A stretch of 32,190 nucleotides of DNA from Deltaproteobacteria bacterium (lineage in GTDB: Bacteria > Desulfobacterota_D > UBA1144 > Nemesobacterales > CSP1-2). The translations under genes and the position numbers were made by a program. Under the pieces are notes generated by a model. That model did not search any database and was not told where the DNA came from. It saw only the letters and a program-made list of their open reading frames with translations. Positions 6,768 to 32,190 of this stretch are shown here, one piece after another. Positions within the stretch are counted from its first letter, which is position 1. Every line of letters starts with the position of its first letter. The stretch lies in NCBI GenBank assembly GCA_016187835.1, contig JACPIY010000029.1, positions 1 through 32,190 of the forward strand, read 5' to 3'.

Positions 6768-6825
6768 AGGAATTTCCCACCCATTGAACGTGAGGCTTAC
6801 ATAAATTTTCAAGAGCAAAATATAT

Positions 6826-6888
6826 CGGGTAGCCCACCAGTCTTGCTGGTGCGTGATGTCGCAACGAGCAAGACTCGTTGCCTACCCG
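6826..6888 (+). other. Y-shaped structured element (candidate terminator or small RNA) downstream of msrAB
   Basis: Outer 7-bp stem cgggtag/ctacccg enclosing two hairpins (caccag-tcttg-ctggtg and gcaacgag-caaga-ctcgttgc). No following U-run. Confidence 0.3.
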
Positions 6889-6916
6889 GTTCAGAACGCA
6901 ATTAGGGTTTTCTCTA

Positions 6917-7201: not shown

Positions 7202-7469
7202 AAATATATACAATGCAAGCGCTAAAGATTTTGGCAGGATTAAAAGCCCTCCGGATAATTTGAAGAGGGGAAGAGGTGAGGAAAACAAAAAATAAGCCTG
7301 TCCAGCTTTGTCGAAGGATCGGTTTTAACTAGAGTAAGAAATTAATATACCAATTTGGAGGGGATAACCGCAGTAATGCAATTATTGGCCGTTATCTGCT
7401 CATTGCGGGCAGGAGAAAGGAGGATTAAAAAAATACAACCGTCTCTAAAAATTAAAAGGAGGTAGTATA

Positions 7470-8693: not shown

Positions 8694-8984
8694 CTGAAGT
8701 TGCTGATAAACTTTTCAGATTTGCAAAAGATGAGTTTAAACCTGTGAAAACTATAGAGGTCCCTGTGTTTGATTTTGCTGAAAGGACTTAATTCCGTCAA
8801 AGACATAGTGTATAACAGTGTCTCGCGCTCTCGTATTTTTCAGCCTAAAATCTAGCCAAAATCGTATTGATTCTGCAATTTGGAAAAGTAGCCAAAATAC
8901 TTATAGAGAAATTGTTGCTGTTGTTGTTGAAATCAAACTGTCTTTTGTGATATTTTATGTATAAAATCGGTTCAAAAACGACAG
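8694..8984. repeat. Repeat family B, copy 2
   Basis: See copy 1. The pair brackets the SPFH and zinc-ribbon genes. Confidence 0.8.
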
Positions 8985-9353
8985 ACTGGCCTAAGAGAAA
9001 GATGCGCGCAATGAATTTTAAGAAGAAACTGTTGAAAGCTTGACTATTCAATTAAGAGAATAAAACAATGCAAAGGCGCCCGTTAAAGGAAGGCTGCAGT
9101 TCCTATGCGTCTAAAAACCGGGGAATGCAGAACATGAATTTATGACCACATACCCTAATACAATTTATGAGGAGGACTGCTTGATGATTTCCGCAAAGCA
9201 CTTAAGGATGAAATTGAAGTTGCTAAACGGAATTCTTCGTATAGTGCTATACCACTAAGCAATGGCCATAAAGTAGCTCAGCTCAGCTCCGCTTTCCAAT
9301 ATGCTTTCCTGATAGATACTGTTCTGAATGCTCCTGATGGCGCACCCGGTGAC

Positions 9354-12300: not shown

Positions 12301-13106
12301 TTTCTACGGATTTCTCACGCGCTACGAATCGTATAGTTATCTATTCTCCTTTTATTACCCAAGACCGTGTAGCATTTTTACTGCCCCAAATGCAAGCGGC
12401 CGCTTCTCGTGGCATTACGATATTCATTCTGACAAAATCTCATTCAGAACGTTCTAAAACAGAACTCAACCTTTATAGAAAGTTGGAAAACCAGCTTTCA
12501 GAAATTGGAGCTGTTATTATCCACAAACTGCGAATGCATGAAAAGCTAGTCTTTATTGATGACAATATTACATGGTCTGGTTCTTTGAACCCATTGAGTT
12601 TCTCAAATACTCAAGAAATAATGGAACGTCGAAAAAGCTCTTCCGTCTTACAGGACTATTTTAAAATATTGCGGCTTGAGGAACTTCTATTAGTTCCTGG
12701 TAAGCCTGAATCGAAATGCCCCATCTGTGGTTCTGAAATGATAGCTGCAGAGGGTGCGGATGAACCGTATTATTGGCGGTGTGCTAATGATGACTGTTAT
12801 TCACGAAGCATTGACCAGCCCTATCCTATTGACGGAATGTTAACATGTGGTTCTTGTAATTCAACAGTAGAGTTTGGGTATTGGGGTGATTATCCTCATT
12901 GGCGTTGTTGTTCGAATACGAGACATCGGCAGAAAATCTTCAAGTCTCATTTGCGACTACCGAAGATGGCTGCCCTAGTGCCAAAATCAGAACGAAAGAA
13001 ATTATGTAGGCTGCTTTCCATTGATGATTTTGATTCATTCATTATTGGAGATACCCATCAGCGGAATGGCATTGTTCAAAGTAGTCTTTTCGGGGATGAT
13101 AATTGA
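9354..13106 (+). CDS. Large fusion protein: Upf1-like SF1 helicase (AAA_11/AAA_12 type) with ~430-aa coiled-coil insertion + single-HKD PLD-family nuclease + tandem topoisomerase-type zinc ribbons. True start probably upstream (frame is open from 9171)
   Basis: Walker A GPPGTGKT (nt ~9669). Q-like LNEDQLKAL. Motif II VIIDEASM (nt ~11296). Motif IV FIPLTEQRRM. Motif V/VI SFQGSEAYVVIF and ALTRAKTRLIVLGD. PLD HKD motif HEKLVFIDDNITWSGSLN (nt ~12535). Cys clusters CPICGSE...WRCANDDC and CGSCNS...WRCCSN. Confidence 0.85.
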   Translation: MLVPGKPPLEVTIVSTEGLRLVVSVNIDLGQYVPTARLQTNLTILMRKLIERIEKNASAANPAASRMLGNSPVSGESKSILEKNLNEDQLKALNSALGRNLTFIWGPPGTGKTHTIGTIAEYLYRDKNTVLIVSHTNTAVDQAVKHVATAFKEKLGIALLQGGILLRIGDVRDEVLKSAFPEVLVKNQVERQFKELVEKREQLASQKQGMEDELNSLNRQITIIEWISGSVGDIRASQNQVNELHEKEHALSISEQELSDLTDKQTALRKKEQLATRVLSLKKELSETKSKEGELQQKLDSLSSEISTTTLQLHRQKEIYEIAKRIEPLRKELASYTSIDKQKAAIAEIYSKISEHSSQIADLQTAFNNATKILEQSCSSGAMMRLWKRLPKPEEQQIAVNTVKTQLDSAINEKANVQKTFETYEDLLIRTEKLAAELSKYSHISDYAQETANLEKANDSLSVLNQKSAELKDRVASVLRAIATLQAEIDKGITELSADPNEVLADVSNQLKYFSDLNEVVKSIGSDCRVMRSQLTSILTHMLECLTVWGLVNSKPTGVEGMLLLIKETHAAVGANFASSDLYSLNNKAGELRVEIFRLSSEISEIEDNLSQVEKIVIAKAAIIGATLTKIYLSDDIQGRKFDTVIIDEASMAPIPALWVAALLVERNLVIVGDFMQLPPIVLSNNTLIQSWLGRDIFEASGVRDLWEKEEPPEYFIPLTEQRRMLPQIAEIANLFYKGNLKTRPDQINLNDDNFLSWYNKDWPYDNPVLLVDTGSLNAWVTSVVKNGNTSRLNFLSATVSIDIAEQLLLPGRPRRQEGAPKRILIISPYRAHAKLVSILLKENDAIQDDVISGTAHSFQGSEAYVVIFDMVADEPHWRVNLFMPDLDDQLKSLLNVALTRAKTRLIVLGDFNYCQSHGEKAFLGKSLLPFLLKKYPRVDASQIIPEGLASRAAKTQMRMLGGSIEPDSDRIVVTQADFYRVLSTDFSRATNRIVIYSPFITQDRVAFLLPQMQAAASRGITIFILTKSHSERSKTELNLYRKLENQLSEIGAVIIHKLRMHEKLVFIDDNITWSGSLNPLSFSNTQEIMERRKSSSVLQDYFKILRLEELLLVPGKPESKCPICGSEMIAAEGADEPYYWRCANDDCYSRSIDQPYPIDGMLTCGSCNSTVEFGYWGDYPHWRCCSNTRHRQKIFKSHLRLPKMAALVPKSERKKLCRLLSIDDFDSFIIGDTHQRNGIVQSSLFGDDN

Positions 13107-16097: not shown

Positions 16098-16912
16098 ATG
16101 GCTGCCATGAAAGCCTTAAAAATCAGTGTATCGGTTTTTATGGTTTTGTTTTTGGTGGTTGGTGCCTGTTACGGCAAGAGCGATACCGATGAAACCTAAT
16201 ACAACGGCTTGAATTATGGCGCGCGGCACAAATTCAAAGAGGCAAAAGAAGAATTTGAAAAGGCTTTGAAGATTGACCCCTTCGATACGGCAGCAAAAGA
16301 GGCACTGAAGGTAATTGAAGCTGCGATCAGCAATAAAATAAAGAGCAAGACGGCTATTCATTTGTTTAAGGGTATAGAGCATGACAACAAAGACAAGCTG
16401 GATAAAGCAATCACCGAGTTTAACAAGGCTATAAAGATAGATCCAAGCTACGCTGAGGATTACTTTACCCGGGGTACTACCTATGACACCAAAGGTCAGT
16501 GTGACAATGCCATTTCCGACTTAAGCAAGGCAATAGAGTTAAACCCAGGTTATGCCGAGGCATACAACAATCGGGGGATTACCTATGTAAACAAAGGACA
16601 GTACGACCAAGCCATTTCTGACTTCACCAAGGCAATACAGATAAACCCGAAAGATGCTGAGGTTTACTACAACCGGGGGCTGTCTATTTAAACAAAGACC
16701 AATATGACCGGGCTATCTCTGACTTCAGCAAAGCCATACAGCTAAACTCAAAAGATGCTGGCTCCTACTACTTTCGAGTTGTTACCTATTATTACAAACG
16801 CAAATACAGCAAAGCCTGGGATGATGTGCGTAAATCAGAGAATTTAGGGTATCAGGTAAAACCGGAATTTCTTGGTGGGCTGCTTAGTAAAGCATCCGGG
16901 AGAGAAAAATAG
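16098..16912 (+). pseudogene. TPR-repeat lipoprotein disrupted by an in-frame TAA (16197..16199) and a -1 frameshift (~16685)
   Basis: ATG 16098 encodes a lipoprotein signal (LFLVVGAC), then TAA, then in the same frame YNGLNYGARHKFKEAKEEFEKALKIDP... TPR repeats. After NRGLSI* the TPR sequence continues in the -1 frame (KDQYDRAISDFSKAIQLN...) to the TAG at 16910. Confidence 0.65.
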
Positions 16913-16932
16913 ATCCGTATGGACGCTAGGAC

Positions 16933-17946
16933 TTAGACAGTTGCATCAATTTTGTCTACAATCTCACGGATAACATCCATCGGATTAATTCCCTCAGCCT
17001 GAGCGCGGAAGTTTAGAACGATTCTGTGCTTAAGAATAGAAGGTGCAATCGCCCTTACATCATCCGTGCTTGGCGTGAACCTGCCGTCAAGAATGGCTCT
17101 TGCTTTGCTTCCCATAATTAAGAACTGTGAGGCTCTGGGTCCTACACCCCAGGAAACACACTTATTTACAGATTCAGGAGTGCTCGAATCGTTTGGTCTT
17201 GTTGCCCTTGCAATTTTTACTGCATAAGCGGCAACATGCTCGGAGACGGGGACTCGATGAACCAGGTCTTGATATTCTAGAATTTTTGAACCATCAAGCA
17301 CCTTTCTAAGCTGGGGTTTGTAGGCACCTGTCGTGGTTCTTGCAATCTCTACCTCTTCATTGAGCGAGGGATAATCCACGTCAATCTGGAACATAAAACG
17401 ATCTAGCTCGGCTTCGGGCAGAGGATAAGTCCCCTCCTGTTCAATTGGGTTTTGAGTGGCAAAAACTAAAAAAGGCGGCTCTAATCTGTACGTTTCTCCA
17501 CCGACTGTGACTTTCCTCTCCTGCATTGCCTGAAGAAGCGCGGCTTGAGTTTTTGGAGATGACCTGTTTATTTCGTCAGCAAGAAGTATATTGCAGAAGA
17601 TTGGTCCCTTTATAAATTTAAAAAATCTATTTCCTGTGGTTACGTCATTTTCCAGAACTTCGGAGCCGGTAATATCTGAGGGCATGAGGTCTGGGGTGAA
17701 CTGAACTCTATTGAATTTCAGGTTTAGAATGTCGGCCAGTGTGCTTACGAGAAGGGTCTTTGCAAGCCCTGGGACTCCAACAAAAAGAGAATGTCCGGAG
17801 GACAGAAGAGAGATGAGCAAGAGCTCTATCACGCTTTTCTGTCCGACTATAATTTTCCTTATTTCTTCGAGAATCTCTTTTCTGACTCTAGAAACTTCTT
17901 CTACCTTTCCTACGTCGTCTTCGCTTCCGTATTCGTATTTGCTCAT
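16933..17946 (-). CDS. MoxR-family AAA+ ATPase
   Basis: Walker A GVPGLAKT, Walker B LLADEINR, and overall MoxR-like sequence. Confidence 0.9.
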   Translation of the reverse strand: MSKYEYGSEDDVGKVEEVSRVRKEILEEIRKIIVGQKSVIELLLISLLSSGHSLFVGVPGLAKTLLVSTLADILNLKFNRVQFTPDLMPSDITGSEVLENDVTTGNRFFKFIKGPIFCNILLADEINRSSPKTQAALLQAMQERKVTVGGETYRLEPPFLVFATQNPIEQEGTYPLPEAELDRFMFQIDVDYPSLNEEVEIARTTTGAYKPQLRKVLDGSKILEYQDLVHRVPVSEHVAAYAVKIARATRPNDSSTPESVNKCVSWGVGPRASQFLIMGSKARAILDGRFTPSTDDVRAIAPSILKHRIVLNFRAQAEGINPMDVIREIVDKIDATV

Positions 17947-17960
17947 TTTAAGTCCTCTAA

Positions 17961-18075
17961 ACTAGAAGTTCCAAATTACAAGCACCAAATTACAAATAAA
18001 TCACAAAGTCTGAGGCACCAAATCTCAAACAGATACCAAATAACAGATTCCTAATTTCCAAACGTTTGGAATTTG
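17961..18075. repeat. ACCAAAT-rich repeat family C, copy 1 (intergenic)
   Basis: Tandem caagcaccaaattacaaat / ggcaccaaatctcaaac units and a perfect 16-nt palindrome ttccaaacgtttggaa. Motifs caagcaccaaat and ccaaatctcaa recur at 25055..25226. Confidence 0.6.
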
Positions 18076-19695
18076 TCATTTGGTATTTGTGTTTTCATAC
18101 GGCTGAGTAACTACGTCGTCTTCGAGTAGTACATTTAAAACCTTTTTCTCAAATTCTTCTAAATCGGTTCTTCCAAGCTTTTTATATATTGAGATTAGAG
18201 CTATATGAATTTCGGGGTTAAAAGGGTTTATGGATATCGCTTGAGTATATGCTTCTTCTGCCTTATTTAAGTTTCCCTTTTCCAAGTAGATTTTCCCAAG
18301 ATTAGTGTAGGTTTCTATATATTCAGGATGTAACTCAAACAGAGGTGTTAGTCTTTCTTTTGCTTTATCGTATTCCCCATAAGCGCTTAGAGTTGAAGCC
18401 AGACGGTTTAGAATAATGGGCGATAGGGGGTCAAAGTGAAGCGCTTTTTCATATTCATAAGTTGCGGCTTTCAGCCTCCCCCTGGTTCTGAGCATGTCGC
18501 CGAGTCTTGTATAGTTTTTAGCCTGGGCATTGTCCAGTTCAACCAGGTCTTCGCTTTGGTCTTTGGACCCTGCTCTCTTTTCCTCAAATCTCAGTTCCTT
18601 TACTTTTACTTGGGGGGTTCTTTCTTTAAGGTTCCTCGATCTCAGGTCTCTTATCCATGTGTTGTAGAAGTCGGCAAAATTCTTTTTTGTAACCTCTTTT
18701 ATAGCCACCTTATAATCGTTTTTTTCTTTGATATTGTTAAGCAAATCCACAAGCGATTTATTCCCCCATTTTTTTACAAGAAAGTCCACAATCGTTCCGA
18801 CTTGCGCAAATGCAAGCTGGGCTTCATAGGCACTGCTTAGCTTTCCGAGGGATGGATGCATTTTCTCTATTGGAACGAGATTGTTTGCCTTAAGCGCCTT
18901 TGCAAGGAGGGTTTCGTAAAAAGGATTTATGACATTTCTCTTCTTTTCTTTCCATCTTTTTTCTTCAAATTTGGCAATACCTTCATGCAGCCACACAGGA
19001 ACGGTATTGCCGCTTTTAAGAAATATAAGATAATGGGTGTATTCATGTGCCAGTGTATCAAGCCACGTATAACCTTGAGGCAGAAGTCTTGGCGATAAGA
19101 TCATTATGCGGTTGAACTTGCAGATTCCTACTACCCCTGTGGTTTTTATATCATTTTCTGAAAGGGTAGAAGCGAGTGTAAAACTTTCAAGATTAGGATA
19201 TATCTCAACAACTACCGGCTCGCTGGGGTAGCTCTCTAAATCGAGCCCGATTTCATAGTAAACCCGTTCAAGCACGTCTTCTGCATAACTCACGAGAATT
19301 GAATCCTTTGAATGGGAGTATCTTATTATGAAATGCTCAGTTTTTACTTCTTCGAATCTTTCCCCATTCTTGGCGACCTTAATTATATAATCTAAAAAAC
19401 CACCGATTTCTTTATCCGCGGGAATTAGTGCATGCGACTTTTCTCCCAGCTCTCTCGCTTTAGTATAGTTGCTTTTATAAAACTCAACCTGAGACTTGAA
19501 AAAATAAGCAAGAGCTTTATCATCAGGACTTTCTGCGAGTTTTAAGATTCTATCCGCGGCTTGTGATGCTTCAGATACCTGCCCACTGAAAAGGTATTGT
19601 TTTCCGCTTTGTAGCTCTATTTCAAAGTCCGGTTCTTTAGCCAAAGCGTTTATACAGAGGGAGAAAAACGAAATTAGAAAGAGTAAACTTTTCAC
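18076..19695 (-). CDS. Secreted peptidase-MA-like (HExxH) domain protein with C-terminal TPR repeats
   Basis: Signal peptide MKSLLFLISFFSLCINALA. LAHEYTHYL...WLHEGIAKFEE gluzincin-like motif. C-terminal TPRs (AEEAYTQAISINPFNPEIH). In an operon with moxR. Confidence 0.7.
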   Translation of the reverse strand: MKSLLFLISFFSLCINALAKEPDFEIELQSGKQYLFSGQVSEASQAADRILKLAESPDDKALAYFFKSQVEFYKSNYTKARELGEKSHALIPADKEIGGFLDYIIKVAKNGERFEEVKTEHFIIRYSHSKDSILVSYAEDVLERVYYEIGLDLESYPSEPVVVEIYPNLESFTLASTLSENDIKTTGVVGICKFNRIMILSPRLLPQGYTWLDTLAHEYTHYLIFLKSGNTVPVWLHEGIAKFEEKRWKEKKRNVINPFYETLLAKALKANNLVPIEKMHPSLGKLSSAYEAQLAFAQVGTIVDFLVKKWGNKSLVDLLNNIKEKNDYKVAIKEVTKKNFADFYNTWIRDLRSRNLKERTPQVKVKELRFEEKRAGSKDQSEDLVELDNAQAKNYTRLGDMLRTRGRLKAATYEYEKALHFDPLSPIILNRLASTLSAYGEYDKAKERLTPLFELHPEYIETYTNLGKIYLEKGNLNKAEEAYTQAISINPFNPEIHIALISIYKKLGRTDLEEFEKKVLNVLLEDDVVTQPYENTNTK

Positions 19696-22600
19696 TTTAT
19701 TATCCTATCATAATATCTCTTATTAAGTTCGCTGTAGCCCTCGGGTGATCCCTCTTTTAAGGCTTTTAAAATACTCTCTTTAAATTCCTTTCCGATCTGT
19801 GATTCTTCAGGTGCCGGGATTTCTACGTAGCCTGTATCAACTCCCTGGGTGCCCTGTTGAAGTTGGTTGCCTAAAACTAGTGGAACAGGTAGTCCCGTTC
19901 CTTTTGCGCTAAGCTGGTATTTCTCGAGGAGTCCTTCGGTTTCTTCACGTGCCTTCTTGAGTGTTTTTATTGCCTCTTCCTGATTTGAGATCGCTTTAGA
20001 TATTTCGGTTTTTTTTAGATTGTCGTATGCGCCACGCATGAATCCCTTTGATTCACCCACTTTTTCTCCGATTTGGGGTATGAGTGAAGAATCGTCTTGA
20101 AATTCACCAATATCGTTCCCAAGTTGCGAGGTTTCTTTTTCAAGTTCATCCTGTCTTTTGGCAATCTGATATGATTGTCCATCTCTGGTTCCCCCTTGCA
20201 AAGCATTCTCAAGGTCTTGGCGAATCTCTCTGGCAAGTCCTTCGGATTTTCCTATCTCTCTATCCCCTTTTGCAATTTCCCAAAACAGTTTACTTAGGTT
20301 TTTAAGTCCTATGGTGTCTTCTTCAACCTCTTTTGCACGTTTCAGGGCTTCCTCAAACTCTAATGCTTGAAGCCAATGCTCCAGCTCATCGGTTTTGCGA
20401 AGTGCTCTGTCAATAAGAAAAGAGCCTTCTATGATTTCACTTTCAGGAATATCTGGAGAAACCTTTGCCTTGGTTTCCGAAAGCATGTTTTTTAATTGCT
20501 CGATTTTCTTTCTTTCTCTTTCTAGAAAATCAGACAGGTTTTCTTTTTTGGGCGGAGATTTGAGGAATGATTCTTTAAGATTTTCGGTTCTTCCTTTAAG
20601 GTTTGTCTGCTCCTTTTCAATGCTTCCAATTCTTGAGATTATCTCGTTTAATCTATTAATTTCCTTTGAAAGCGAAGCAGAGCTAAATGACTGAAAACCG
20701 CTTTCGAGTGAAGCGATCATACTTTGAAGACCCGTTTTAAGACTTGAAAGCAAATCTACGGCTTCGTCAATTTTTCCCCGCTCTGCAAGCTTCATAATTT
20801 CATCGAGCTTTCCCTGTAAGTCAATGGACTCAAATGCATCAGGATTTAAAAATCCGTCGTAGATGTCTCCGCTTATAGAACTTAGCTTCTCCGTTAACTC
20901 AGACATCAGGCTTCTTAGCTCTTCTATCTTTTTGGCTATTTCTTTTCTCGTTGTTTCATCTCCGTTTTGCTTTAGCTTCTCGAGTAGCTCTGAAAGCTCA
21001 TTGTATTTACTGAGCGTATCTTTTCCGTAAAGCAGAGATTCTCTCAGCTTTTCTCCTTTAAGCATTGAGTCCAAGAATAATATGTCATCCTCAAATTCAT
21101 TTATTTCTTTTGTTATAAGACTATCTAGTCTTGGTAAATCAGTTATCAAAAATGAAGGAATTAAATCATGACGTTCATCCAGCAAATCCTGAATCCTTAT
21201 CTTCATACCGGAAAGTTCCAGGAAATAGGTATAGTCTGAAAAATCGTCGTTTCTCATTTTCCCAACTATTTTGTCTAGGGAGCTTAGAGATCTTTCAATC
21301 TTACTCGTTAAATCTTCCTGTATGCTTTTTGTCATGCTGATATTTATCTTGCTGTAATCAGATTGATTCTCGCTTTGCCCAGGTGTCTGATCGCCATCCG
21401 AATTTTGATCTGAATTTAAAGGCCAATTTCCGAATCTTGCATTTTCGACTTCGTCCCCAAGTATATCCAAGAATTCATCTAAAAGCTTTTCTGCTATTAT
21501 TAATATGTCTTCATGTTTTTTTCTCGGGTTCTTGAACTTAACTTTAATTACGTTTGAAACCCCGATCTTAGGACCGGATACTGTATCGTTGTCATACGCC
21601 TTTATTCTTACCTCTAAAGTTTCACCCGGATCAGAGTCAACTGAACCAAGCTCCCATAGAAACTTACCTTCAAGAAATTTTAACTCTTCCTTTGTTTGCT
21701 TTATCAACCTGCTTGACTCGCCTTTCTTTGTATTCCAAGCAAGCATTAGTTTCGTAATTCCGAAATCGTCGTCCGCTCTGTAGTTAACCTCGAGTTTTTC
21801 TCCGCCATCAATTTCTATTACATCTCCACCGGGATGTTCAATATTTACTCTTGGATTTTTGTCTTCCTCCATAGTGATTTTAAAAACCCTTGACCTATAT
21901 TTTCCGCTCTTATCTTCAACAAAAAAACTCCCGCTCGAGAGTATTCTGAACTCCGCCTTAATTTTCCCTTTTTCAGAGTTTACAGGAATGACATGCCCTT
22001 TCTCAATGACGAGATTCCCTCTATCTAGAAGCTTCAGGGGAGTTGCTTCAAATGCAACATTGGTTCCCTTTATAGCTTTTATATCTCCTGTGCTTCCCTT
22101 TATTTCCTGAGGAGGAATCTCAGTGTAATCGGGGTAGTTGTAATTTACTTTAATATCCGCAAGTTCAAGGAGATAGGGCTCTGTTGGTGGGAAGATTTTA
22201 GTGCTGAATAAAAAACTATGGAACTCTCTTGGTGAAAATATCAAAGAGGTTAGGGATAAAACAAAAACGGCGGCGATCGCCTTCGAGTAACTCCTTATTT
22301 TCTCTTTAGGAACGGCCGGAGATAAATCAAGCGATTCAATCCTACTAGCAACTTTGTCTATATGCGCACTGACAAGGGGCTTCGAAACGCCTAGTTTTTT
22401 CACGCTTTGAGTCTCCGCCATAAGAAGGGCGGCGTTTAATGTGTCTTCTCCCAGACCCGGAGAAACTCTCTCAAGCTCCTTTGCCAGTTCCGTTTTTCTC
22501 TCCTTTTTTAATATGGGAGGAAGCAGGAACTTTACAAACCCGAAAAACAAAGCCGCTATAGCTAAGGTTTTTAGGATAGAGAAATAAAGATTATTTGAGT

Positions 22601-22778
22601 AAATATGGGCAAAAAGAGAGATTAATCCCAGAGATGCACATAGAACCAATAAAAATTCTATCGTGCCATTTGTTAAACAAACCCTTTTTCGTTTCTTTTC
22701 TAGGCTTCTTAGAACTTTATCTAGAATCGCTTCTGAACCGGTATTCATCAAATAAAATAGTACCGCAGAGTTAGGCAA
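19692..22778 (-). CDS. Large membrane-anchored coiled-coil protein (1028 aa), first gene of the MoxR operon; BatD/DUF4175-like is possible
   Basis: Three N-terminal TM helices, then a long charged coiled-coil region with K/E-rich heptads. 4-nt overlap with the downstream gene. Confidence 0.6.
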   Translation of the reverse strand: MPNSAVLFYLMNTGSEAILDKVLRSLEKKRKRVCLTNGTIEFLLVLCASLGLISLFAHIYSNNLYFSILKTLAIAALFFGFVKFLLPPILKKERKTELAKELERVSPGLGEDTLNAALLMAETQSVKKLGVSKPLVSAHIDKVASRIESLDLSPAVPKEKIRSYSKAIAAVFVLSLTSLIFSPREFHSFLFSTKIFPPTEPYLLELADIKVNYNYPDYTEIPPQEIKGSTGDIKAIKGTNVAFEATPLKLLDRGNLVIEKGHVIPVNSEKGKIKAEFRILSSGSFFVEDKSGKYRSRVFKITMEEDKNPRVNIEHPGGDVIEIDGGEKLEVNYRADDDFGITKLMLAWNTKKGESSRLIKQTKEELKFLEGKFLWELGSVDSDPGETLEVRIKAYDNDTVSGPKIGVSNVIKVKFKNPRKKHEDILIIAEKLLDEFLDILGDEVENARFGNWPLNSDQNSDGDQTPGQSENQSDYSKINISMTKSIQEDLTSKIERSLSSLDKIVGKMRNDDFSDYTYFLELSGMKIRIQDLLDERHDLIPSFLITDLPRLDSLITKEINEFEDDILFLDSMLKGEKLRESLLYGKDTLSKYNELSELLEKLKQNGDETTRKEIAKKIEELRSLMSELTEKLSSISGDIYDGFLNPDAFESIDLQGKLDEIMKLAERGKIDEAVDLLSSLKTGLQSMIASLESGFQSFSSASLSKEINRLNEIISRIGSIEKEQTNLKGRTENLKESFLKSPPKKENLSDFLERERKKIEQLKNMLSETKAKVSPDIPESEIIEGSFLIDRALRKTDELEHWLQALEFEEALKRAKEVEEDTIGLKNLSKLFWEIAKGDREIGKSEGLAREIRQDLENALQGGTRDGQSYQIAKRQDELEKETSQLGNDIGEFQDDSSLIPQIGEKVGESKGFMRGAYDNLKKTEISKAISNQEEAIKTLKKAREETEGLLEKYQLSAKGTGLPVPLVLGNQLQQGTQGVDTGYVEIPAPEESQIGKEFKESILKALKEGSPEGYSELNKRYYDRIIK

Positions 22779-22870
22779 AAAGGAAACAAATTCGTGACAT
22801 TTATTAACCTTATGCTATCATTATTGGTTAAAAAGAAGACTCTAGCTTTTCAAAAAAATGGGAAAAATCA

Positions 22871-23296
22871 ATGGCATATAAAATCCTTCTTACAAAAAGA
22901 GTTGATTTTGCCGCTTCTCATCGGTATTGGAACCAAGAATGGAGTGAAGCAGAAAACAAAGCAGTCTTTGGCAAATGCACAAGTCCTTACGGCCATGGGC
23001 ACAACTATATACTTGAAGTCACCCTTGAAGGGGAGGTTGACCCGGATACGGGTATGATAATAAACCTATACGATTTGAAACCAATATTAAGCGATGTCTT
23101 GAAGGATTTCGATCACAAGTACCTAAACGAAGACAATCCCGAATTTAAAGATTTAATTCCCACTACTGAAAATATCGCGAGGGTTTTGTGGGATTCCCTC
23201 GAGAAAAAACTTGGAGAGGATACAAACTGCAGGCTCTACAGAATAAGGCTTTATGAGACCCCGGATTTATATGTGGATTATTGGAGGGAGCGATGA
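22871..23296 (+). CDS. 6-pyruvoyl-tetrahydropterin synthase family protein (paralog 1)
   Basis: FGKCTSPYGHGHNY (C-x5-HGH active site) and a PTPS fold-length protein. Confidence 0.85.
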   Translation: MAYKILLTKRVDFAASHRYWNQEWSEAENKAVFGKCTSPYGHGHNYILEVTLEGEVDPDTGMIINLYDLKPILSDVLKDFDHKYLNEDNPEFKDLIPTTENIARVLWDSLEKKLGEDTNCRLYRIRLYETPDLYVDYWRER

Positions 23297-23715
23297 TAAA
23301 TGAGATATGCACCTTAACCAGAATTTATCATTTCTCTGCCGCTCACAGGCTGCATTCAGAGAAATATTCTGAGGAGGAAAATCAGCGAATTTTTGGTAAA
23401 TGTAATAATGCTAAAGGGCATGGACACGATTACTATATTGAGGTTAAGGTAACAGGAGATATTAACCCCGAAACGGGAATGGTGATAAACCTAAGTGAAC
23501 TGGATCAAATCATGAAAGATGTTATAGACGAGCTTGACCATACAAGACTTGATATTGAAATCCCATTTTTTAGAGAGTTTCAGCCTTCTGGCGAAAACAT
23601 AGTGAAATATATATGGCTAAAGCTTCAGCCCAAGATGAAGGTAGCAAGACTTTATCATCTAAAACTGTGGGAGACGCCGGATAACTATTTCGAGTATTTT
23701 GAGGAGGGAGAATAG
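23293..23715 (+). CDS. 6-pyruvoyl-tetrahydropterin synthase, eukaryote-like (paralog 2)
   Basis: [39 protein letters not shown] closely resembles animal PTPS (GKCNNPNGHGHNY...PATGMVMNLADL). Start ATG 23293 overlaps the upstream stop (ATGA) with GGAGGGAG SD; the track ORF starts at 23281. Confidence 0.85.
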
Positions 23716-23720
23716 GTAAC

Positions 23721-24272
23721 ATGAGCATCGAAAGTGCTGTAAGAGAAATTCTTTTTGAGATTGGAGAGAATCCGGATCGGCAGGGGCTCAAGGATACTCC
23801 CAACAGAATCTCAAGGATGTATAAGGAACTAACATCGGGCTATGGTGTATCGCCTAGGGAATTGGTTAATGGTGCGATTTTTGATGAAAAATACGATGAA
23901 ATGGTGATTGTTAGGGACATAGAGTTTTATAGTCTCTGTGAGCATCATCTGCTTCCTTTTTTCGGTAAATGTCATGTGGCATATATTCCAAACGGAAAGA
24001 TAATCGGGCTTAGCAAAATCCCAAGAATTGTTGAGGTGTTCTCCCGCAGGCTACAGGTTCAGGAGAGGATGACAGTTCAGGTCGCCGATTTTCTTGGCGA
24101 TATTCTAAATCCAGAAGGAGTAGCGGTTGTTGCCGAGGCGTATCACCTATGTATGGCAATGAGGGGGGTTAAAAAGGCAGAAGCTAACATGCTAACCAGT
24201 TCAATGCGGGGAGTTTTTAAAGACGACGAAAGAACAAGGGCGGAGTTTCTAAGACTCATAGGAAAACATTGA
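23721..24272 (+). CDS. folE: GTP cyclohydrolase I
   Basis: [18 protein letters not shown] and [16 protein letters not shown] conserved FolE motifs. Confidence 0.9.
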
Positions 24273-24349
24273 CAAAAAATGTAGGGGCGATCCCCCCGTG
24301 TTCGTCCTGCTTTGTATTCCCCCTGAGATCAGCTTTTAGGAAAGCACTG

Positions 24350-25054
24350 ATGAAAGGTGAAGTAGTCGTTATAACCGGAGCCGGAAAAGGAATGGGAAAA
24401 GAGATCGCTCTTGAGTTTGCTAAAGAAGGGGCTTTTATCGCAATCTGCGCCAGAACACCTGAAGGTATTAAACAAACTGAAAGGGAAGTAAAAGAACAAG
24501 GAGGAGAGACGTTAGCTGTAATCTGCGATGTCGGAGATGAAAGGGAGGTTGAGAGATTTATCCAAAACGCATCCGAAATAAGCGGAAAAATAAACGTCCT
24601 CGTTAATAACGCTGGGGTTGTCTTTGTGGGGCCTGTATCTCATTTTGATACTTCCAAATGGGAACAGACACTTAGAGTAAATCTTACCGGCGCTTTTCTC
24701 CTTACCAAGCACGCACTTAAATTTATGGATGAAGGAAGCCATATATTTAATATAGCCTCAAACGCCGCTAAGATTGGGTTTCCTAATTGGTCCGCGTATT
24801 GCGCATCAAAATTCGGGCTTCTCGGATTTACAAATTCGCTCAGAGAAGAGCTAAGGGGAAGAGGAATAAAGGTTACTGCTATAATCCCCGGTCCCACCGA
24901 TACGCCACTATGGGATGAAATTCCTGGAAATTGGGATAAAAAAAAGATGATAAAAGCCAGAGATATTGCTAGGATGGTAGTTAATGTATACAAACAACCT
25001 AAAGGAACCCTTACGGAAGAAGTTGTTATGATGCCGATAGGAGGAGCGTTATGA
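24350..25054 (+). CDS. Short-chain dehydrogenase (sepiapterin/pteridine reductase-like by context)
   Basis: VVITGAGKGMGKEIA Rossmann motif, YCASK catalytic YxxxK. Start taken at ATG 24350 (MKGEVVV); the track ORF extends to 24269. Confidence 0.75.
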   Translation: MKGEVVVITGAGKGMGKEIALEFAKEGAFIAICARTPEGIKQTEREVKEQGGETLAVICDVGDEREVERFIQNASEISGKINVLVNNAGVVFVGPVSHFDTSKWEQTLRVNLTGAFLLTKHALKFMDEGSHIFNIASNAAKIGFPNWSAYCASKFGLLGFTNSLREELRGRGIKVTAIIPGPTDTPLWDEIPGNWDKKKMIKARDIARMVVNVYKQPKGTLTEEVVMMPIGGAL

Positions 25055-25226
25055 AAAACAAACCCCAAATACCAAATCACAAATCTCAAATGAAAGGAAT
25101 TTGCCTTATTGTTGTTATTTGAAATTTGGTAATTGTGGTTTGCCATTATTGTTTGGGATTTGGTGCTTGAGATTTGGAGTTTGTAGTTCCATTTGTGGCT
25201 AGATATTAACAAAAAGGAAAAACAAA
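25055..25226. repeat. ACCAAAT-rich repeat family C, copy 2, arranged as a long imperfect inverted repeat
   Basis: Forward half aaccccaaataccaaatcacaaatctcaaatg; reverse-complement half atttggtgcttgagatttggagtttg (contains the RC of caagcaccaaat). Confidence 0.55.
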
Positions 25227-25871
25227 ATGAGCCAAGCAAACGGAAAGAAACAAATCGTAAGCCCAACGGTTACCCACTCAAGAAGAATTCCTCCGGGGCA
25301 GGTTACAACTCAGAAATTCCCGGTTTATGACATTGGCCCAAGAGCGATCTTTAACAAGGGAAAATGGCGCTTTGTGATCAGTGAAAAAGTTAGATAAGAA
25401 AGAATGCTTACCTGGGACGATTTTATGAATCTTCCACGAATAGAGGTAGTTGCGGATTTTCACTGTGTCACCAGGTGGTCAAAGCAAAATATGCTCTGGG
25501 AAGGGGTGAGGACAAAAACTATATATGATTTGGTTGAGCCCGATTCCTATGCAAAATACTTGATGATTCACTGTATGGAAGGATATACAACAAACGTTCC
25601 AATTGAGGATTTTTTAAAAGAAGACTGTCTTTTTGCTTGCAATCTTAACGGCAAACCGCTTGAACCTGAGCACGGGTTTCCTTTACGCCATGTTATACCA
25701 CAGCTTTACGCCTGGAAAAGTGCCAAGTATGTTTATGGAGTGGAGTTCATGCTCGAAGATGAACCAGGCTATTGGGAACTTAGAGGCTATCATATTCATG
25801 GCGATCCCTGGAAGGAAGAAAGATTTTGGGATGATGAAATGAAGGTCTGGGAGATAAGAAAAAAGAAATGA
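25227..25871 (+). pseudogene. Sulfite-oxidase-family molybdopterin-binding domain protein (YedY/MsrP-like small form) interrupted by in-frame TAA at 25395..25397
   Basis: ATG 25227 encodes ...FPVYDIGPRAIFNKGKWRFVISEKVR, then TAA, then in the same frame ERMLTWDDFMNLPRIEVVADFHCVTRWS (hallmark HCVTxWS motif). The two halves together form one canonical domain. Confidence 0.65.
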
Positions 25872-26062
25872 TGATGCAAATAGTCGTAGTTGGACTTAGC
25901 TATAAAAATACTCTGGTTGAAATAAGAGAGAAGTTTTCTTTTATTCAGCCAACTCTTGAAATTGGGTTTGCTGAGTTACACAAGAAAGGGAACATTGAAG
26001 TGTGCTTGCTTTCTACCTGCAACCGCAACAATCTATTTGTTTATAAAGGAATACAAACGTGA
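25868..26062 (+). pseudogene. hemA: Truncated glutamyl-tRNA reductase (hemA) N-terminal fragment
   Basis: MMMQIVVVGLSYKNTLVEIREKFSF...CLLSTCNRNNLF matches the HemA N-terminus (including the catalytic-Cys STCNR motif). It stops after 64 aa. The downstream ~700 nt has no ORFs. Confidence 0.6.
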
Positions 26063-26798
26063 ATGAGAAGGCAGAGCCAGACCTAAGGTTAGTCTCTTAA
26101 CTCCACCCAAAACGATATACCTAACACACATAGCACCAAACTAGCGAAGAAGGCTACCTATAATACCCTGTATCTATTTCAACGGTAAATATGCCGGGGT
26201 AGTCTTGGACGTACCTTCAAACAGACTACTTGCTGTTATTGTAATCTCCTAATGTGTATTACCAAAAGTTTGATCTTTTATCTCTCTTATCTTTCTTAGC
26301 ACAGGCATTATGTATTTTTTGAACGTCTCCTGATTCTCAAGTCGTAGGCAATCACCCTAAAATTTTGAGTTATGTCAGGGTTTTCTAATATGTATCTCCA
26401 TTGGTGATTATGGCAACCCGCGGTGTGCTGGCAAACTAGGGGAATGCCTTCATAGTTTTCTAAGAAGAAGACCTTATATTCTATACCTCCTACATCAACA
26501 TAACGTGACGGGCAGTGTTTCCCGTACTAATACCCAAGATGCGTCTTCTGATGCTAATTCATTAAGAGTTGCCATCTTTAAATTAATTTAGACCTGTTCT
26601 GAAAGGCACTAGAGAGAGAAGATGAAGTTCTCCAGTGCCTTTCAGCAAAAGGGTATCTAAAGTCCTCGCAGTGTATCTCAACTATCCGAAATACACCCTC
26701 AGATGGAGGAAGCTCAGGTATGGATGCTTCCAATGACTTACGTACTGATTCAGCATCTTTACCATCCCACTCACAGAAGACTTTGTACAGAATCCAGT

Positions 26799-27212
26799 TT
26801 AAATTTCATATTCTCCTTCCCAATCTATCCTAACCTCTGTAGGAGAAATCATATGTCCTTTTACTGTACCTTTACCTTTTATACCTTTGAATTTGCCATT
26901 TCCACCATCAAGTATCCATGTTCCCTCTACCTTGACCTGTCCACCTGAGTTAAATGTTTTACCCTCAATCCTACCCCAATCTCTATCTCCATCTTTATCT
27001 ATGTTGGTGTAGTATGCGTGGTATGTACTTTTATCTCCAATAATATCCGACATGTTCCAATAAGTGATAACAGCACCCTTCCATTTACCGTCTGAACAAT
27101 CCTGTATCCCTGATACCTCCGCCAGATTTAGCTCATGGTTAGCCATATGTGGCAAAGATACGTTAGTTTGCCAATTCACTTTTCCAGTGAATCCTCCGGA
27201 AAACTTAGTCAT
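26799..27212 (-). CDS. Hypothetical small protein (137 aa)
   Basis: ATG 27212 (MTKFSGGFTGKVNWQ...) has AAGGAGGG SD 8 nt upstream. No recognisable motif; Gly/Lys-rich C-terminal half. Confidence 0.5.
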   Translation of the reverse strand: MTKFSGGFTGKVNWQTNVSLPHMANHELNLAEVSGIQDCSDGKWKGAVITYWNMSDIIGDKSTYHAYYTNIDKDGDRDWGRIEGKTFNSGGQVKVEGTWILDGGNGKFKGIKGKGTVKGHMISPTEVRIDWEGEYEI

Positions 27213-27707
27213 TTTTAGTTCCCTCCTTTTTGATATGTTTGTACTTATCGCAAGCGTTGTGCCAAGATTGAAAAAAATTGAAGGATTTAGAGATGAGCTA
27301 AGATAAAATGTACCAAATACAGCCAATTAAACAGTTTTACAACAGGGATTTTGTATCCTTGGCGATGTCTGGTTTGAGTACCAATAGTGTAAACTATTGT
27401 TTACATATTTTTATCCTTAGAGTTGACTCTCGCTATAACTACCTAAAAACATTGGACTTCTGTTGTGTAAACAAAAGTTTCGGACTAAAAGACAAACCAT
27501 CAACTAAAGTTGACACTTTTCAATAACTAGAAATCTCTGATTGTTAATATCTCAATTGGTAACTATTCAGCTACTGATTAAAGGTTCGAAGGAATTTATA
27601 GATAATATATCTCGTGCTTGTTCTGCATCTTGCTTTAAGGAAATACATCTTTTAGCTGCCACGGACGGCAGCTATTTTCAATATTTATTTAGGTTTAATA
27701 ATGGCGA

Positions 27708-28844
27708 TTATCCCAAATCTCTTAGTACCTTCCTAGCCTTTTCGGGCTCGTGTAGTGTGCCCAGCTTTTCGAAGATGTGGAGAGCCTGGGTAGTATATTT
27801 CTTTGCCTTATCTTTTTCCCCTTTTTCTTTGTATAACCTTCCTAAGCTAATATAACTCTTAGCAAGCTCGTTTTTTGCTCCTATTTCTTTAAGGATTCTA
27901 ATGCTATCTTCAATATAATTTTTAGCCTTATTAAAATCATTTCCACCGTATATTTCCCCTAAGACTCTATAAGCCATTCCCTCCCAGTGTCTAAAGCCGC
28001 TCTCTTTACTGATCTCTAAAGCTCTTTTTATCGTTTCCAGAGCTTTATCCCTTTCACCAATGGATAAATAAGCCTCTCCTAAATAGATGCTGGTTACAAC
28101 TTCTTGAAGTTTCAGTCCAAACTGTTTGCCCTGTTGGATAGCTTTCTCCATACACTCTATTCCCTTCTTTAACTGACCGTCCTTATAATAAGCCGCGCCA
28201 AGAAATCCTGTAGCAAATGTAGCAAATATCGGTGGGGGAGACATTTCGAGACACCTTTCACAGTACTTAATCGCTATGTCCCATTCTCCTTTTTCTAAAT
28301 GGGGAAGAGCGGCAAACCAGCATGCCAATGCCATGAGGTTGTTGTCTGATATTTCTTCACTTTTTTTCAGAAGCTTTTGTATATAGTTTATGCTTTTATC
28401 CCAGTTACCCGTAAACCAATAATATGCTCCTATGGCTTCGAAAGCCCTACCAAGCCAATAATGCTCTCCCAGTCTCTCTAGAATTTTTACACCTTTTTGG
28501 ACGATGGGAATCACCTTCTTAAATTCACCCTTGTACAAATAGTTATATCCTTGCCTTACGGATGCTAATCCAATAATTCTTTCATTTTTTGTTAACTCAG
28601 CTAGTTCAATCGACTTCGTACAGTACCGAATTGCATATTCAAGGTCTCCCCTCACTGAATAATAAAATCCCATTTTAAAGTAGTATTCTGCCAGCCTGTC
28701 TTTATCCCCAAGCTCTTCTACTATTGGTAGATTCTTTTCTAAGGTTCTTATATGTTCTTTAAATCGATTCATAAGACGCATAACTCTTGCCTGCTTTATG
28801 AATATATCTACCCTCTTTTCTTTATTTGCCCTGGTATTAGGCAT
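27708..28844 (-). CDS. TPR-repeat fragment (C-terminal part of the disrupted cyclase/STAND/TPR gene)
   Basis: Consecutive TPR units. Its reading frame is open upstream through VGYYEEALKRLDKMPNT, overlapping the end of the 28880..30688 ORF in another frame (-1 frameshift near 28882). Confidence 0.7.
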   Translation of the reverse strand: MPNTRANKEKRVDIFIKQARVMRLMNRFKEHIRTLEKNLPIVEELGDKDRLAEYYFKMGFYYSVRGDLEYAIRYCTKSIELAELTKNERIIGLASVRQGYNYLYKGEFKKVIPIVQKGVKILERLGEHYWLGRAFEAIGAYYWFTGNWDKSINYIQKLLKKSEEISDNNLMALACWFAALPHLEKGEWDIAIKYCERCLEMSPPPIFATFATGFLGAAYYKDGQLKKGIECMEKAIQQGKQFGLKLQEVVTSIYLGEAYLSIGERDKALETIKRALEISKESGFRHWEGMAYRVLGEIYGGNDFNKAKNYIEDSIRILKEIGAKNELAKSYISLGRLYKEKGEKDKAKKYTTQALHIFEKLGTLHEPEKARKVLRDLG

Positions 28845-28879
28845 CTTATCCAGTCTCTTAAGAGCTTCTTCATAGTATC

Positions 28880-30688
28880 CTACGCATCCTCGGTAGAATA
28901 AATCTTTGCAGACTTATCCCCTGCTAAGGTCAAATAATCTACTGCCTTTTCATCCCTGGTGCTTCTCCTATAGTGATATGCTAATAGCTCATAATTCTCT
29001 TCCAGTTTATCCCCATATAAGTCCTCTAATATCTCTCCTATCTTTCCGTGTAATTCTTTTCTTCTTTTAATAAGGAGGCTATTATAAGCTACTTCCTGTG
29101 TAAGGCTGTGTTTGAATCGGTATTCTAAGTCTGGAAAGAGGCTTTTCTCATATATTAGCTCTAAACCTTTTAGCTGAGTAAGATAATCCTGAAGCTCTTC
29201 TTCTATCTCAATTATCTCTTTTAGCAATTTATAGCTAAATTCCCTACCAATAACAGAGGCATATTGAAGTGTCCTTTTAAGATTCTCTTCCAACCTGTCA
29301 ATCCTCGCCATTATAATGTCCTGTATAGTATCAGGTACATCCACCTCTGCTATACTCTTGCTAATACTGTAGCCATCTTCTCTTCTAACAATTATCTCTG
29401 ACTCAATGAAAGACTTAATAATCTCTTCTACATAAAAAGGAATTCCATCGGCTTTGTTTGTAACTAATTTAATTAGCTCTCCAGTTACTCTTTCACTATC
29501 TAAGATTGATTTTATCATCTCCTCTACTTCCTTATCTGACAGCCGACTTGGAGCAATTTGAATGTGATAGGATTTTTCACTCCATTTAGCCCTGTAACCG
29601 GGGCGACTTGTAAGAATTAGCATTATCTTACTGCTGGGTATATTATCTATAAGGAAGGTCAAAAACTCCTCAGATGCACCATCTATCCAGTGAAGATTCT
29701 CAACCGCTACAACAAGTGGTCTCAAGTTGCTATCGGCTAAAATTATATTCTTTAAGGTCTCAAGTGTCCTTTTCCTTTTATCTCTTAGGTCTAAGCTCTT
29801 AAGAAGAGCATCTGTCTCAATTGAAAGTATGTCGTAGAGGAAAGGAATACTCCCCTCTAAGTTTGGGTCTATATCTCTTATCCCTTTCTCTATATTCTTT
29901 CTTATCGTTCTTTCAGTATCTAGATTATCTATTCGAAACCTCTTTTTTATAATATCTGTAACAGGTAAATAAGAGATCGATTTTCCATATGAAATACATC
30001 TACCTTCTAAGTAAAGTATTTTTTCATCTTCTATGAGTTTCCTAAACTCGTAAAGAAGCCGAGATTTACCTATTCCTGCATCACCTATTATGGTTACAAC
30101 CTGTCCCGCCCCTTCCTTCACCTGCTCCCAGCATTCCAGCAAAAGCTCTACTTCCTTCTCTCTTCCCACAAGCGGAGTCAGCCCTTTAGTGATAGAAACA
30201 TCAAACCGGCTCCGAACACCACTCTCATGGAGCACACGATACACATCCAACGGAGTTGAAAATCCCTTTAACGTGTGCAGGCCGAGGTAATGGTACTCGA
30301 ATAATCCCTCAACCAGACGATATGTGGCAGAACTGATCACCACCGTATAAGGCTCTGCTACACTCAGCAGCCGAGCAGCAATGTTAGGTGTCCCACCCAC
30401 GATCTCTATAGGTTCCCGCGTATCTTTTACTTTCATTTCTCCTATTACCATAAGACCTGTATGTATTCCTACGCGCACCTGTAGTGGTAATTGTACTTGT
30501 GTGTTCTCTAGGGGCAGTTGACCAAACGCATCTACAATCTCCAACCCTGCGCATACTGCCCTTTTTGCATCATCTTCATGTGCCGACGGATAACCAAAGT
30601 AGACCAACAGCCCATCATCAAAGTATCTTGCTATGCGTCCCTCAAAGCGGCTGACCAACTTTGAGGAGACATCGAGATGGGTACGCAT
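28880..30688 (-). CDS. Class III adenylate/guanylate cyclase domain + STAND (AAA_16-type) NTPase fragment of a disrupted gene
   Basis: Cyclase motifs (RFEGRIARYFDDGLLVYFGYP, IGIHTGLMVIGE). Walker A VVTIIGDAGIGKSRL. The listed Met start is internal. The same frame upstream reads [17 protein letters not shown], and the first 15 cyclase residues ([14 protein letters not shown]) are in the sigma-54 activator frame. Confidence 0.7.
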   Translation of the reverse strand: MRTHLDVSSKLVSRFEGRIARYFDDGLLVYFGYPSAHEDDAKRAVCAGLEIVDAFGQLPLENTQVQLPLQVRVGIHTGLMVIGEMKVKDTREPIEIVGGTPNIAARLLSVAEPYTVVISSATYRLVEGLFEYHYLGLHTLKGFSTPLDVYRVLHESGVRSRFDVSITKGLTPLVGREKEVELLLECWEQVKEGAGQVVTIIGDAGIGKSRLLYEFRKLIEDEKILYLEGRCISYGKSISYLPVTDIIKKRFRIDNLDTERTIRKNIEKGIRDIDPNLEGSIPFLYDILSIETDALLKSLDLRDKRKRTLETLKNIILADSNLRPLVVAVENLHWIDGASEEFLTFLIDNIPSSKIMLILTSRPGYRAKWSEKSYHIQIAPSRLSDKEVEEMIKSILDSERVTGELIKLVTNKADGIPFYVEEIIKSFIESEIIVRREDGYSISKSIAEVDVPDTIQDIIMARIDRLEENLKRTLQYASVIGREFSYKLLKEIIEIEEELQDYLTQLKGLELIYEKSLFPDLEYRFKHSLTQEVAYNSLLIKRRKELHGKIGEILEDLYGDKLEENYELLAYHYRRSTRDEKAVDYLTLAGDKSAKIYSTEDA

Positions 30689-31929
30689 TACCTCCTGCAG
30701 GTCTTAAGGATCAATCTGTTCCGACATAGACGTAAAACCCCTACTAAATCACAAAACATAACCGTTAGATGGCGGCGCTCGGGCTGTCGTGAACCCTGAG
30801 CCGTGAGCCTAGTCGAACGGTCGAAGGGCCGAACTGTCTTTTTAGGTCTGATGTGCCTGCCCTTGTCTTTTTGATTGCCCGGCTCTTTATCTATGTCGGT
30901 AGATCTGGAGGTTAGAGCCTCATTATATTTCTTTAATTTTTTTATCAGCCCTTGCCTTGTAAGCCCCAGAATCTTGGAAGTCTTTTGCTTATTCCCCCTG
31001 TTTTTCTCCAGGACTTCTTTTATCAAACGAATCTCATATTCCTCTACCACCTCTTTAAGAGATTGGTTTTCTTCCTCAGTATGAGCGTATTGCAATATGT
31101 TCATACCCAATACAGGATTTTTTCGGGCCACACTTCTCACGTTTTCTGAGAGATCGCTTTCATCAATAACATCATTATCGGCCAAAATTGCCGCACGCTT
31201 TACCTCATTCTCTAACTCTCTTACATTTCCAGGCCAACTGTAGTTAACAAGGCAATCCATTGCCTCAGAAGAAAAATGCATAGAGCCCCTTCCTAATTTG
31301 TTTGCAAAGCTACTTAAGAAATACTGGGCGAGAAGGGGGATGTCCTCCTTCATTTCACGAAGCGGAGGCATATGAACAAGGACTACATTTAGCCGGTAAT
31401 ACAGGTCTTCACGGAAGCTCCCCTTCTTTATCTCATTCTTTAAGTCTTTATTTGTAGCCGCAAGAACCCTTACATCTACATTAATCGCACTTCTCCCTCC
31501 AACCCTCTCCATTTTTCTCTCCTGAAGCACACGAAGGAGTTTTGTCTGAGCAGGAAGGCTCATGTCTCCTATTTCATCCAGAAACAGCGTCCCACCGTTT
31601 GCCATCTCAATCTTTCCTACTCTCCTTTCTACCCCTGTAGCTACCCCCTTTTCAATGCCAAAAAGCTCACTCTCAAGTAGGCTCTCCGGCAGTGCCCCAC
31701 AGTTAATGTCTATGAAAGGTTTCCCAAAGCGTGAGCTATTGTAGTGGATTGTACGCGCCACAAGTTCCTTTCCCATCCCACTTTCTCCAGTAATAAGGAC
31801 GCTCAGAGGACTGTCGGAAATCTTTTCTATTAACCTTACTACCTCCTGTATTCTCGGACTTGTTCCTATAATGTTGTTTACAAAGAACCTGCCCTTGGCT
31901 TTTTCTCTACCTTCACTCTTAGGGTTCAT
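30688..31929 (-). CDS. Sigma-54-dependent transcriptional activator (AAA+ sigma-54 interaction domain + Fis-type HTH, no receiver domain), with an unusual 60-aa C-terminal tail running in frame into the cyclase start
   Basis: Walker [24 protein letters not shown] (GAFTGA-like loop), Walker [10 protein letters not shown]-finger region, C-terminal [22 protein letters not shown]. The tail ...[18 protein letters not shown] is a cyclase N-terminus. Confidence 0.8.
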
Positions 31930-32147
31930 AATAACGTTCCTTTATTTTATTAACCGATTATTAGGCATATTCTGCTCCTTGTCATGCCCGAATGCATCAA
32001 TCGAGCATCCATAAACGGCTAAATACTGGATTCCCGCTTAAGACATGCGGGAATGATAACATGAAAAAGTTGTGCACCTCTGGCGATAGATTTGATAAAC
32101 TATCGCTGGACCAAAAACCAAAATAGGAGGTGCACGATATGAAATAT

Positions 32148-32190
32148 ATAGGGATTGACAATCATAAGCAATATTTTGTAGCCTCAGTGG
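32148..32190 (+). CDS. 5' end of a putative IS110-family (DEDD) transposase, truncated by window end
   Basis: AGGAGG SD 7 nt upstream of ATG. N-terminus MKYIGIDNHKQYFVASV fits the M..IGIDxxK......V start of IS110-family transposases. Confidence 0.35.
   Translation, partial: MGIDNHKQYFVASV

Follow-up and report, generated by a model that had tools for sequence, protein, structure and literature searches.

In-frame TAA codons and frame breaks in three genes of a deltaproteobacterial contig very probably mark ordinary pseudogenes

The stretch analyzed here, the complete contig JACPIY010000029.1 (32,190 nucleotides) from a Deltaproteobacteria bacterium (NCBI GenBank assembly GCA_016187835.1; hereafter the window), carries three recognizable genes whose reading frames are interrupted: a tetratricopeptide repeat (TPR) lipoprotein gene (gene A), a YedY/sulfite oxidase-like molybdopterin oxidoreductase gene (gene B), and an adenylate/guanylate cyclase gene with AAA_16 ATPase and TPR regions (gene C). 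We consider it very probable that the stops and frameshifts in these genes are genuine loss-of-function mutations that produced ordinary pseudogenes, and neither sequencing errors nor traces of a changed genetic code. An earlier note, made from the sequence alone, had reported that TAA interrupts three genes, at 16197, 25395, and 30704, and tracing of the frames bore this out. Genuine decay was one of the two alternatives raised there; it is now supported by lesions that share genes, by intact copies in relatives, by a polymorphic deletion, and by truncations and fusions nearby.

Gene A (16098 to 16912, forward strand) starts at an ATG at 16098, encodes a signal peptide with a lipobox cysteine, and ends at a TAG at 16910. 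Its TAA (16197 to 16199) is in frame with this ATG and the lipoprotein signal peptide, and a 1-nt deletion lies between 16684 and 16685 (CTG TC_ TAT), after which the frame is open to the TAG at 16910. The reconstructed translation gives TPR Pfam matches, and repeat analysis showed that the spacing of the TPR units drops from 102 nt to 101 nt, indicating that the gene is one base short at 16684/16685. Homologs of gene A are single open reading frames (ORFs) of 268 amino acids (aa; 55 to 58% identity) that align from signal peptide to C terminus over both lesions. At the column of the stop, which is poorly conserved, they carry Ser, Tyr, or Trp, so no single ancestral codon can be assigned at 16197; at 58% identity, the top relative is too distant to date the lesions. 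The annotated remnant of the gene is a 160-aa ORF (16209 to 16691) identical to GenBank MBI2486341.1.

Gene B (25227 to 25871, forward strand; 214 codons; PF00174, E=5.7e-38) has a single disabling lesion, a TAA (25395 to 25397) that is the 57th codon counted from the ORF start at 25227. Direct nucleotide alignment with the sister contig L012 (SRR33174183; 94% nucleotide identity) pairs AGA TAA GAA of the window with AGA GAA GAA of L012, identifying a GAA-to-TAA (G to T) nonsense mutation. All 13 homologs at 52 to 89% identity are intact, with Glu at the stop position in 11 of the 13. Those at 71 to 89% identity are 214 to 223 aa long, and in the closest cluster most of the members listed are full length (214 aa).

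Gene C (27708 to 30792, reverse strand) is a single ORF of ~1110 aa, intact and 65 to 73% identical overall, in its homologs; in the window it lies in pieces, namely, the tail of ORF 30688-31929, a 602-aa ORF (28880-30688, identical to GenBank MBI2486350.1), and ORF 27708-28844, all on the reverse strand. The cyclase domain contains a TAA (30706-30704) that shares its frame with the 602-aa ORF and stands where the homologs examined invariably have the Glu of the motif DPE(E/D)L. The frame also breaks in a GGGGTTTT run (G4T4; 30734 to 30741), where the V-G-S-T of homologs fits the V-G-F-T of the window, through either two extra bases or one lost. Farther into the gene, one A of an Ile codon is missing between 28882 and 28883 (28880 to 28885; GCG TAG GA versus the expected GCG ATA GGA; A-I-G-Y-Y in homologs), and this loss makes the TAG that terminates the 602-aa ORF. 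Gene C is without the N-terminal double zinc ribbon present in close homologs. Its sequence 3' of ~30100 is visibly far more similar to the ~1110-aa homologs than is its cyclase part, which reaches only 55 to 59% identity with the best full-length homologs. At 30100 the GC content steps from 0.31-0.35 to ~0.50. Taken from the sequence, these data indicate that the 5' part of gene C (~30100 to 30792) is of different origin, its 5' end having been replaced.

Independent data were available as Logan short-read contigs, assembled separately from six public runs (SRR12113390, -401, -422, -426, -428, and -429) and retrieved by exact-product look-ups. These contigs are 99.8 to 100% identical to the window, and single-nucleotide polymorphisms (e.g., at 16228, 14809, and 24698) set them apart from the metagenome-assembled genome (MAG) to which the window belongs; they are therefore separate data and no copies of it. 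The TAA at 16197 is unchanged in four contigs (L001 and L003 to L005), the 16685 break in five, the TAA at 25395 in six (L006 to L010 and L019), and the 28882 break in two (L006/L018 and L019), so that each of the four lesions checked was reproduced in contigs from two to five runs. At these four positions an artifact is refuted. The earlier note had offered as its other alternative a systematic sequencing artifact, with homopolymer deletions and perhaps methylation-motif substitutions. Errors of sequencing or assembly of this type, which uncorrected long-read and 454 assemblies contain in the form of deletions in homopolymers and miscalls linked to motifs, would have split genes that are intact in the organism. 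It had placed -1 frameshifts at 16685, 28882, and 30738 in short homopolymers. The one-base breaks are there, but the homopolymer context holds only for 30738 (G4T4), the single break in a run of at least 4; a lone A was lost at 28882, and the 16685 break touches at most a 2-base run. The three TAA sites have no common flanking motif (CCTAATAC, GATAAGAA, and CCTTAAGAC). Because the separately assembled contigs reproduce the lesions, only one break lies in a run, and no motif unites the TAA sites, we reject the artifact explanation for all lesions that could be tested. Moreover, a 16-bp deletion described below varies between samples like an allele. On the other side, no independent contig reaches 30704 and 30738, and related contigs from other projects also contain frame breaks (in an SDR gene of L012 and in peptidase and DUF4175 genes of L020), some of which are possibly errors. 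On balance, we judge an artifact very unlikely as the explanation of the whole pattern.

The two lesions near the right end bear on a different technical concern. If the contig were chimeric, its high-GC ends (1 to 2000 and 30100 to 32190) would come from another organism, and misassembly would have created the lesions at 30704 and 30738 as well as the lack of a gene C 5' end. The GC content does rise from ~0.33 to ~0.50 at 30100 and reaches 0.47 at the left end, and the step falls in a conserved P-loop region, at the onset of similarity to close homologs. Furthermore, the independent contig ends at 30481, and exact-product look-ups with ORFs 28880-30688, 30688-31929, and 27708-28844 found no independent contig over 30481-32190. 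However, the Logan contig L006/L018 extends 380 bp past the 30100 junction with zero mismatches. In addition, a TAA and a frame break are part of the high-GC segment, so that lesions would be present in whichever genome supplied it. We regard a chimera as very unlikely.

Neither do the data favor recoding, in which a suppressor tRNA would read TAA as Glu, programmed ribosomal frameshifts would bridge the breaks, or both, leaving the genes functional. Two of the three TAA codons do fall exactly at Glu positions of the homologs, the stop is TAA each time, and every one of the frame breaks needs a shift in the same direction. Yet TAA remains a terminator in the window. The 16 intact genes end in TGA (8), TAA (5), and TAG (3), in agreement with the earlier observation that both TAA and TGA are used, with TAG in addition; there is no in-frame TAA in their 5,945 codons; and MoxR, terminated by TAA at 337 aa, has the same length as most relatives. 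TAA is not reassigned, in line with the earlier note, which had considered reassignment unlikely. That note had also proposed that relatives sharing identical stops would point to recoding; the relatives instead carry sense codons, GAA in the closest and mostly Glu in others. A tRNA scan found no tRNA gene in the window, and an Rfam scan of the window was likewise empty. Known bacterial stop reassignments all concern UGA (PMC8629427). At the three breaks (GGG CTG TCT ATT TAA; GAT GCG TAG; GTA GGG GTT TTA), no slippery heptamer of the form X XXY YYZ was present in the upstream frame, and the breaks are not conserved in homologs, which are unbroken single ORFs. We therefore consider recoding extremely improbable. 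The same holds for a leaky variant, in which a suppressor derived from Glu-tRNA would occasionally decode TAA as glutamate in this lineage and the stops in genes B and C would be tolerated rather than inactivating; if true, no earlier case of UAA recoding in a bacterium would precede it, but we give it next to no credence.

That the stops are all TAA is correct, but the special meaning suggested by the words "always TAA" did not hold up. From the codon usage of the window and a substitution spectrum polarized by two outgroups, TAA is expected to make up 0.35-0.42 of new nonsense mutations (P for 3 of 3, ~0.04-0.08). Three TAA codons are barely unusual and within the output of an AT-rich, Glu-rich coding sequence. 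A G-to-T signature of oxidative damage was considered and rejected: C>A accounts for only 7 of 69 polarized substitutions in the window lineage, with no excess of G:C to T:A changes.

Several points weigh against the reading as genuine loss-of-function mutations. The lesions at 30704 and 30738 lie outside all independent contigs. The confirming runs all apparently come from one project and site, and they would then represent one population and no independent lineages. Replacement of Glu in two of the three stops is mildly unexpected, given that GAA-to-TAA changes make up 11 to 15% of the expected nonsense paths. An ATG at 25404, two codons past the gene B TAA, is Met in most relatives and is annotated by gene callers, making an N-terminally truncated 155-aa product of gene B formally possible. 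Lastly, the ratio of nonsynonymous to synonymous substitution rates (dN/dS), a check that the earlier note had proposed, was computed for gene B: it shows a modest rise on the recent branch (0.25, window versus L012, compared to 0.11 at greater depth), but 0.25 is far below 1 and is common to the sister branch, which has odd substitutions of its own. At columns invariant in nine homologs, the window has three private changes (G53E, E65D, and L155H) and the sister lineage has five. Relaxed selection on gene B is only suggested by these values.

Larger disruptions of the same kind lie elsewhere in the window. A superfamily-1 helicase/PLD-nuclease gene (9142 to 13106, forward strand) has lost 16 bp (AAATATCTTTACCTCC) between 9175 and 9176, adjoining a GGAGG...CCTCC inverted repeat. 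The earlier note had suspected a -1 frameshift at 9184-9260; the lesion is real, but it is this 16-bp deletion. Contig L001 (SRR12113422) holds an undeleted allele encoding 1326 aa, and the deletion is therefore a segregating polymorphism. Following gene B, a 64-codon remnant of hemA (glutamyl-tRNA reductase; 25868 to 26062, forward strand) loses homology to relatives at ~26025, a breakpoint unchanged in four Logan contigs (L006 to L008 and L019). The relatives L012 and L021 have full hemA genes (444 aa), with hemC downstream of hemA in L021. At the left end, an ORF on the reverse strand (394 to 1464) joins the N-terminal part of an MFS_3 transporter (the first 200 of 524 profile positions) to an in-frame glyoxalase/dioxygenase domain. 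This fusion is probably a deletion product; a look-up with MsrAB returned a 2.3-kb contig only, with no independent confirmation of 394-1464. In total, about 6-7 of roughly 27 gene-sized loci on the contig are disrupted, an unusually high local density. Genes A, B, and C, which contain all six point lesions, account for only about 4.5 kb of the coding sequence (about 27 kb in the window); by a rough estimate, the probability of the three extra hits is ~0.005.

The lesions are derived, since the intact state is found in relatives for gene B (L012), the helicase gene (L001), and hemA (L012 and L021), and full-length homologs align on both sides of the lesions in genes A, B, and C and the helicase gene. 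We propose that the three TAA codons and three frame breaks arose as independent loss-of-function mutations, recently acquired and fixed in the population. Two or three of the lesions would be base substitutions to stop, two of them Glu to stop, of which one is shown directly to be GAA to TAA, and the frame breaks would be small indels, each shifting the frame like a one-base loss. Genes A, B, and C would no longer be under effective selection, and dead genes would gather further lesions neutrally. Such accumulation continuing after gene death would explain why two of the three genes have several lesions. The segregating helicase deletion, the truncated hemA, the replaced cyclase 5' end, and the MFS/glyoxalase fusion would be damage of this type on a larger scale. 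The comparisons show the lesions themselves, their reproducibility, their absence from relatives, and the normal use of TAA as a terminator; that function was lost, that the changes are neutral, and that the lesion density reflects decay of the whole lineage or of an island is inferred from these.

The origin of the DNA gives these observations a setting. Run SRR12113421, inside the range SRR12113390-SRR12113429, is from groundwater in Modesto, California (PMC11549363); the remaining runs in that range would by their numbering belong to the same project, and the window DNA is probably from Californian groundwater. With the DUF4175 protein as query, the nearest named relatives, and the only named genomes found, were two Candidatus Dadabacteria MAGs at 58% aa identity. 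A free-living groundwater lineage in early genome decay, in which roughly one gene in four or five is disrupted and some lesions still segregate, is a tentative idea that we regard as doubtful.

Features beside the lesions include the sigma-54 activator ORF upstream of the cyclase fragment (30688-31929, reverse strand). It begins at its AAA+ domain, has a stop 8 codons upstream, and contains no sensor domain; it has no stop of its own and runs 75 codons beyond the helix-turn-helix into the cyclase fragment. It may be an intact regulator of the PspF type, or it may be one more truncated gene. A natural fusion of sigma-54 activator and cyclase was rejected, as the best cyclase homologs with long N termini carry tandem cyclase, not sigma-54, domains, and none of the homologs examined had the combined architecture. 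With only 53% identity to the GAF-sigma54 gene that relatives have, the sigma-54 gene may be an ortholog that has lost an N-terminal domain. In the sister contig L012, the SDR gene carries +1 and -1 indels 200 nt apart (~6677 and 6877, equal to window 24737 and 24938), one of them in an A8 run, which shorten the called product to 133 aa; either the assembly is in error here or the sister lineage has a pseudogene. In L020, from a Joint Genome Institute metagenome and a more distant relative, the region 2980-7621 shows one frame change in the peptidase_MA/TPR gene and two in the DUF4175 gene, reflecting either clade-wide decay of the operon or indel errors in that assembly. A suspected degraded alpha/beta-hydrolase remnant at ~26330-26530 (reverse strand) was dropped after Pfam scans of stop-masked translations came back empty.

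The earlier note had also placed an insertion sequence (IS) element adjacent to the lesions, but Pfam scans found no transposase domain in any ORF scanned. The only repeats found are dispersed, non-coding, and located elsewhere. One direct repeat of ~380 bp (15-384 and 5198-5599; 84% mean identity) has internal hairpins (e.g., 5360-5378/5385-5403) and recurring TGTCATTTCGAC and GGAATGACA motifs, and gave no match in Rfam or Pfam. Its copies bound a 5.2-kb block, the left part of which has a raised GC content (0.47), and Logan contigs often break there; the repeat may be a dispersed element resembling miniature inverted-repeat transposable elements or repetitive extragenic palindromes (MITE/REP-like). 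A second direct non-coding pair (6931-7202 and 8700-8985; ~270 bp, 82 to 91% identical) lies around an SPFH/Band-7 gene and a small zinc-ribbon ORF. Two inverted stretches of CAAAT-rich intergenic DNA of low complexity (17960-18095 and 25060-25188) border a 7-kb block from the peptidase to the SDR gene, and the latter stretch differs in length from L012 by gaps of 10 to 19 nt. Finally, 2937-3033 consists of four imperfect purine-rich (GAG/GAA/GGT) tandem units of 21 to 24 nt; it is unannotated, has overlapping ORFs on both strands, and gave no Pfam match.

The split ORFs merit annotation as pseudogenes; at present two of the fragments, MBI2486341.1 (160 aa) and MBI2486350.1 (602 aa), stand in GenBank as proteins. 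There is no need to count the contig as error-ridden, and it gives no evidence for a new genetic code. Pseudogenes of this kind are already known, and only two aspects are mildly interesting, namely, how densely dead genes lie here and the polymorphic deletion. These two, together with the loss of hemA at this locus, offer a lead: if the rest of the genome is alike, ongoing gene loss outside a host would have a natural example in this Dadabacteria-related groundwater population.

The lesions resemble three known phenomena to different degrees. Like homopolymer errors of long-read and pyrosequencing data, they include single-base breaks that divide conserved genes into neighboring ORFs; unlike such errors, they occur in Illumina-type short-read assemblies, recur in independent libraries, and lie in a run of at least 4 in only one case of three. 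The reassignment of UGA to Trp or Gly (translation tables 4 and 25; PMC8629427) likewise places in-frame stops at conserved positions of recognizable genes. Here, in contrast, the codon is TAA, for which no bacterial reassignment is known, and it still terminates genes, is absent in frame from intact genes, and is absent at these positions in relatives. The closest likeness is to textbook bacterial pseudogenes. Nonsense mutations and small deletions have produced pseudogenes in Mycobacterium leprae, Sodalis glossinidius, Shigella, and Salmonella Typhi, and a bias toward deletions is general among bacteria. The window departs from these cases in that its source is apparently a free-living groundwater bacterium represented by a MAG only, and not a known host-restricted pathogen or symbiont, and in that IS expansion is not visible within the window. 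It agrees with them in its premature stops and frameshifts where the orthologs of close relatives are intact, in its several lesions per dead gene, in the dominance of small and larger deletions, and in the truncated and fused remnants that lie nearby.

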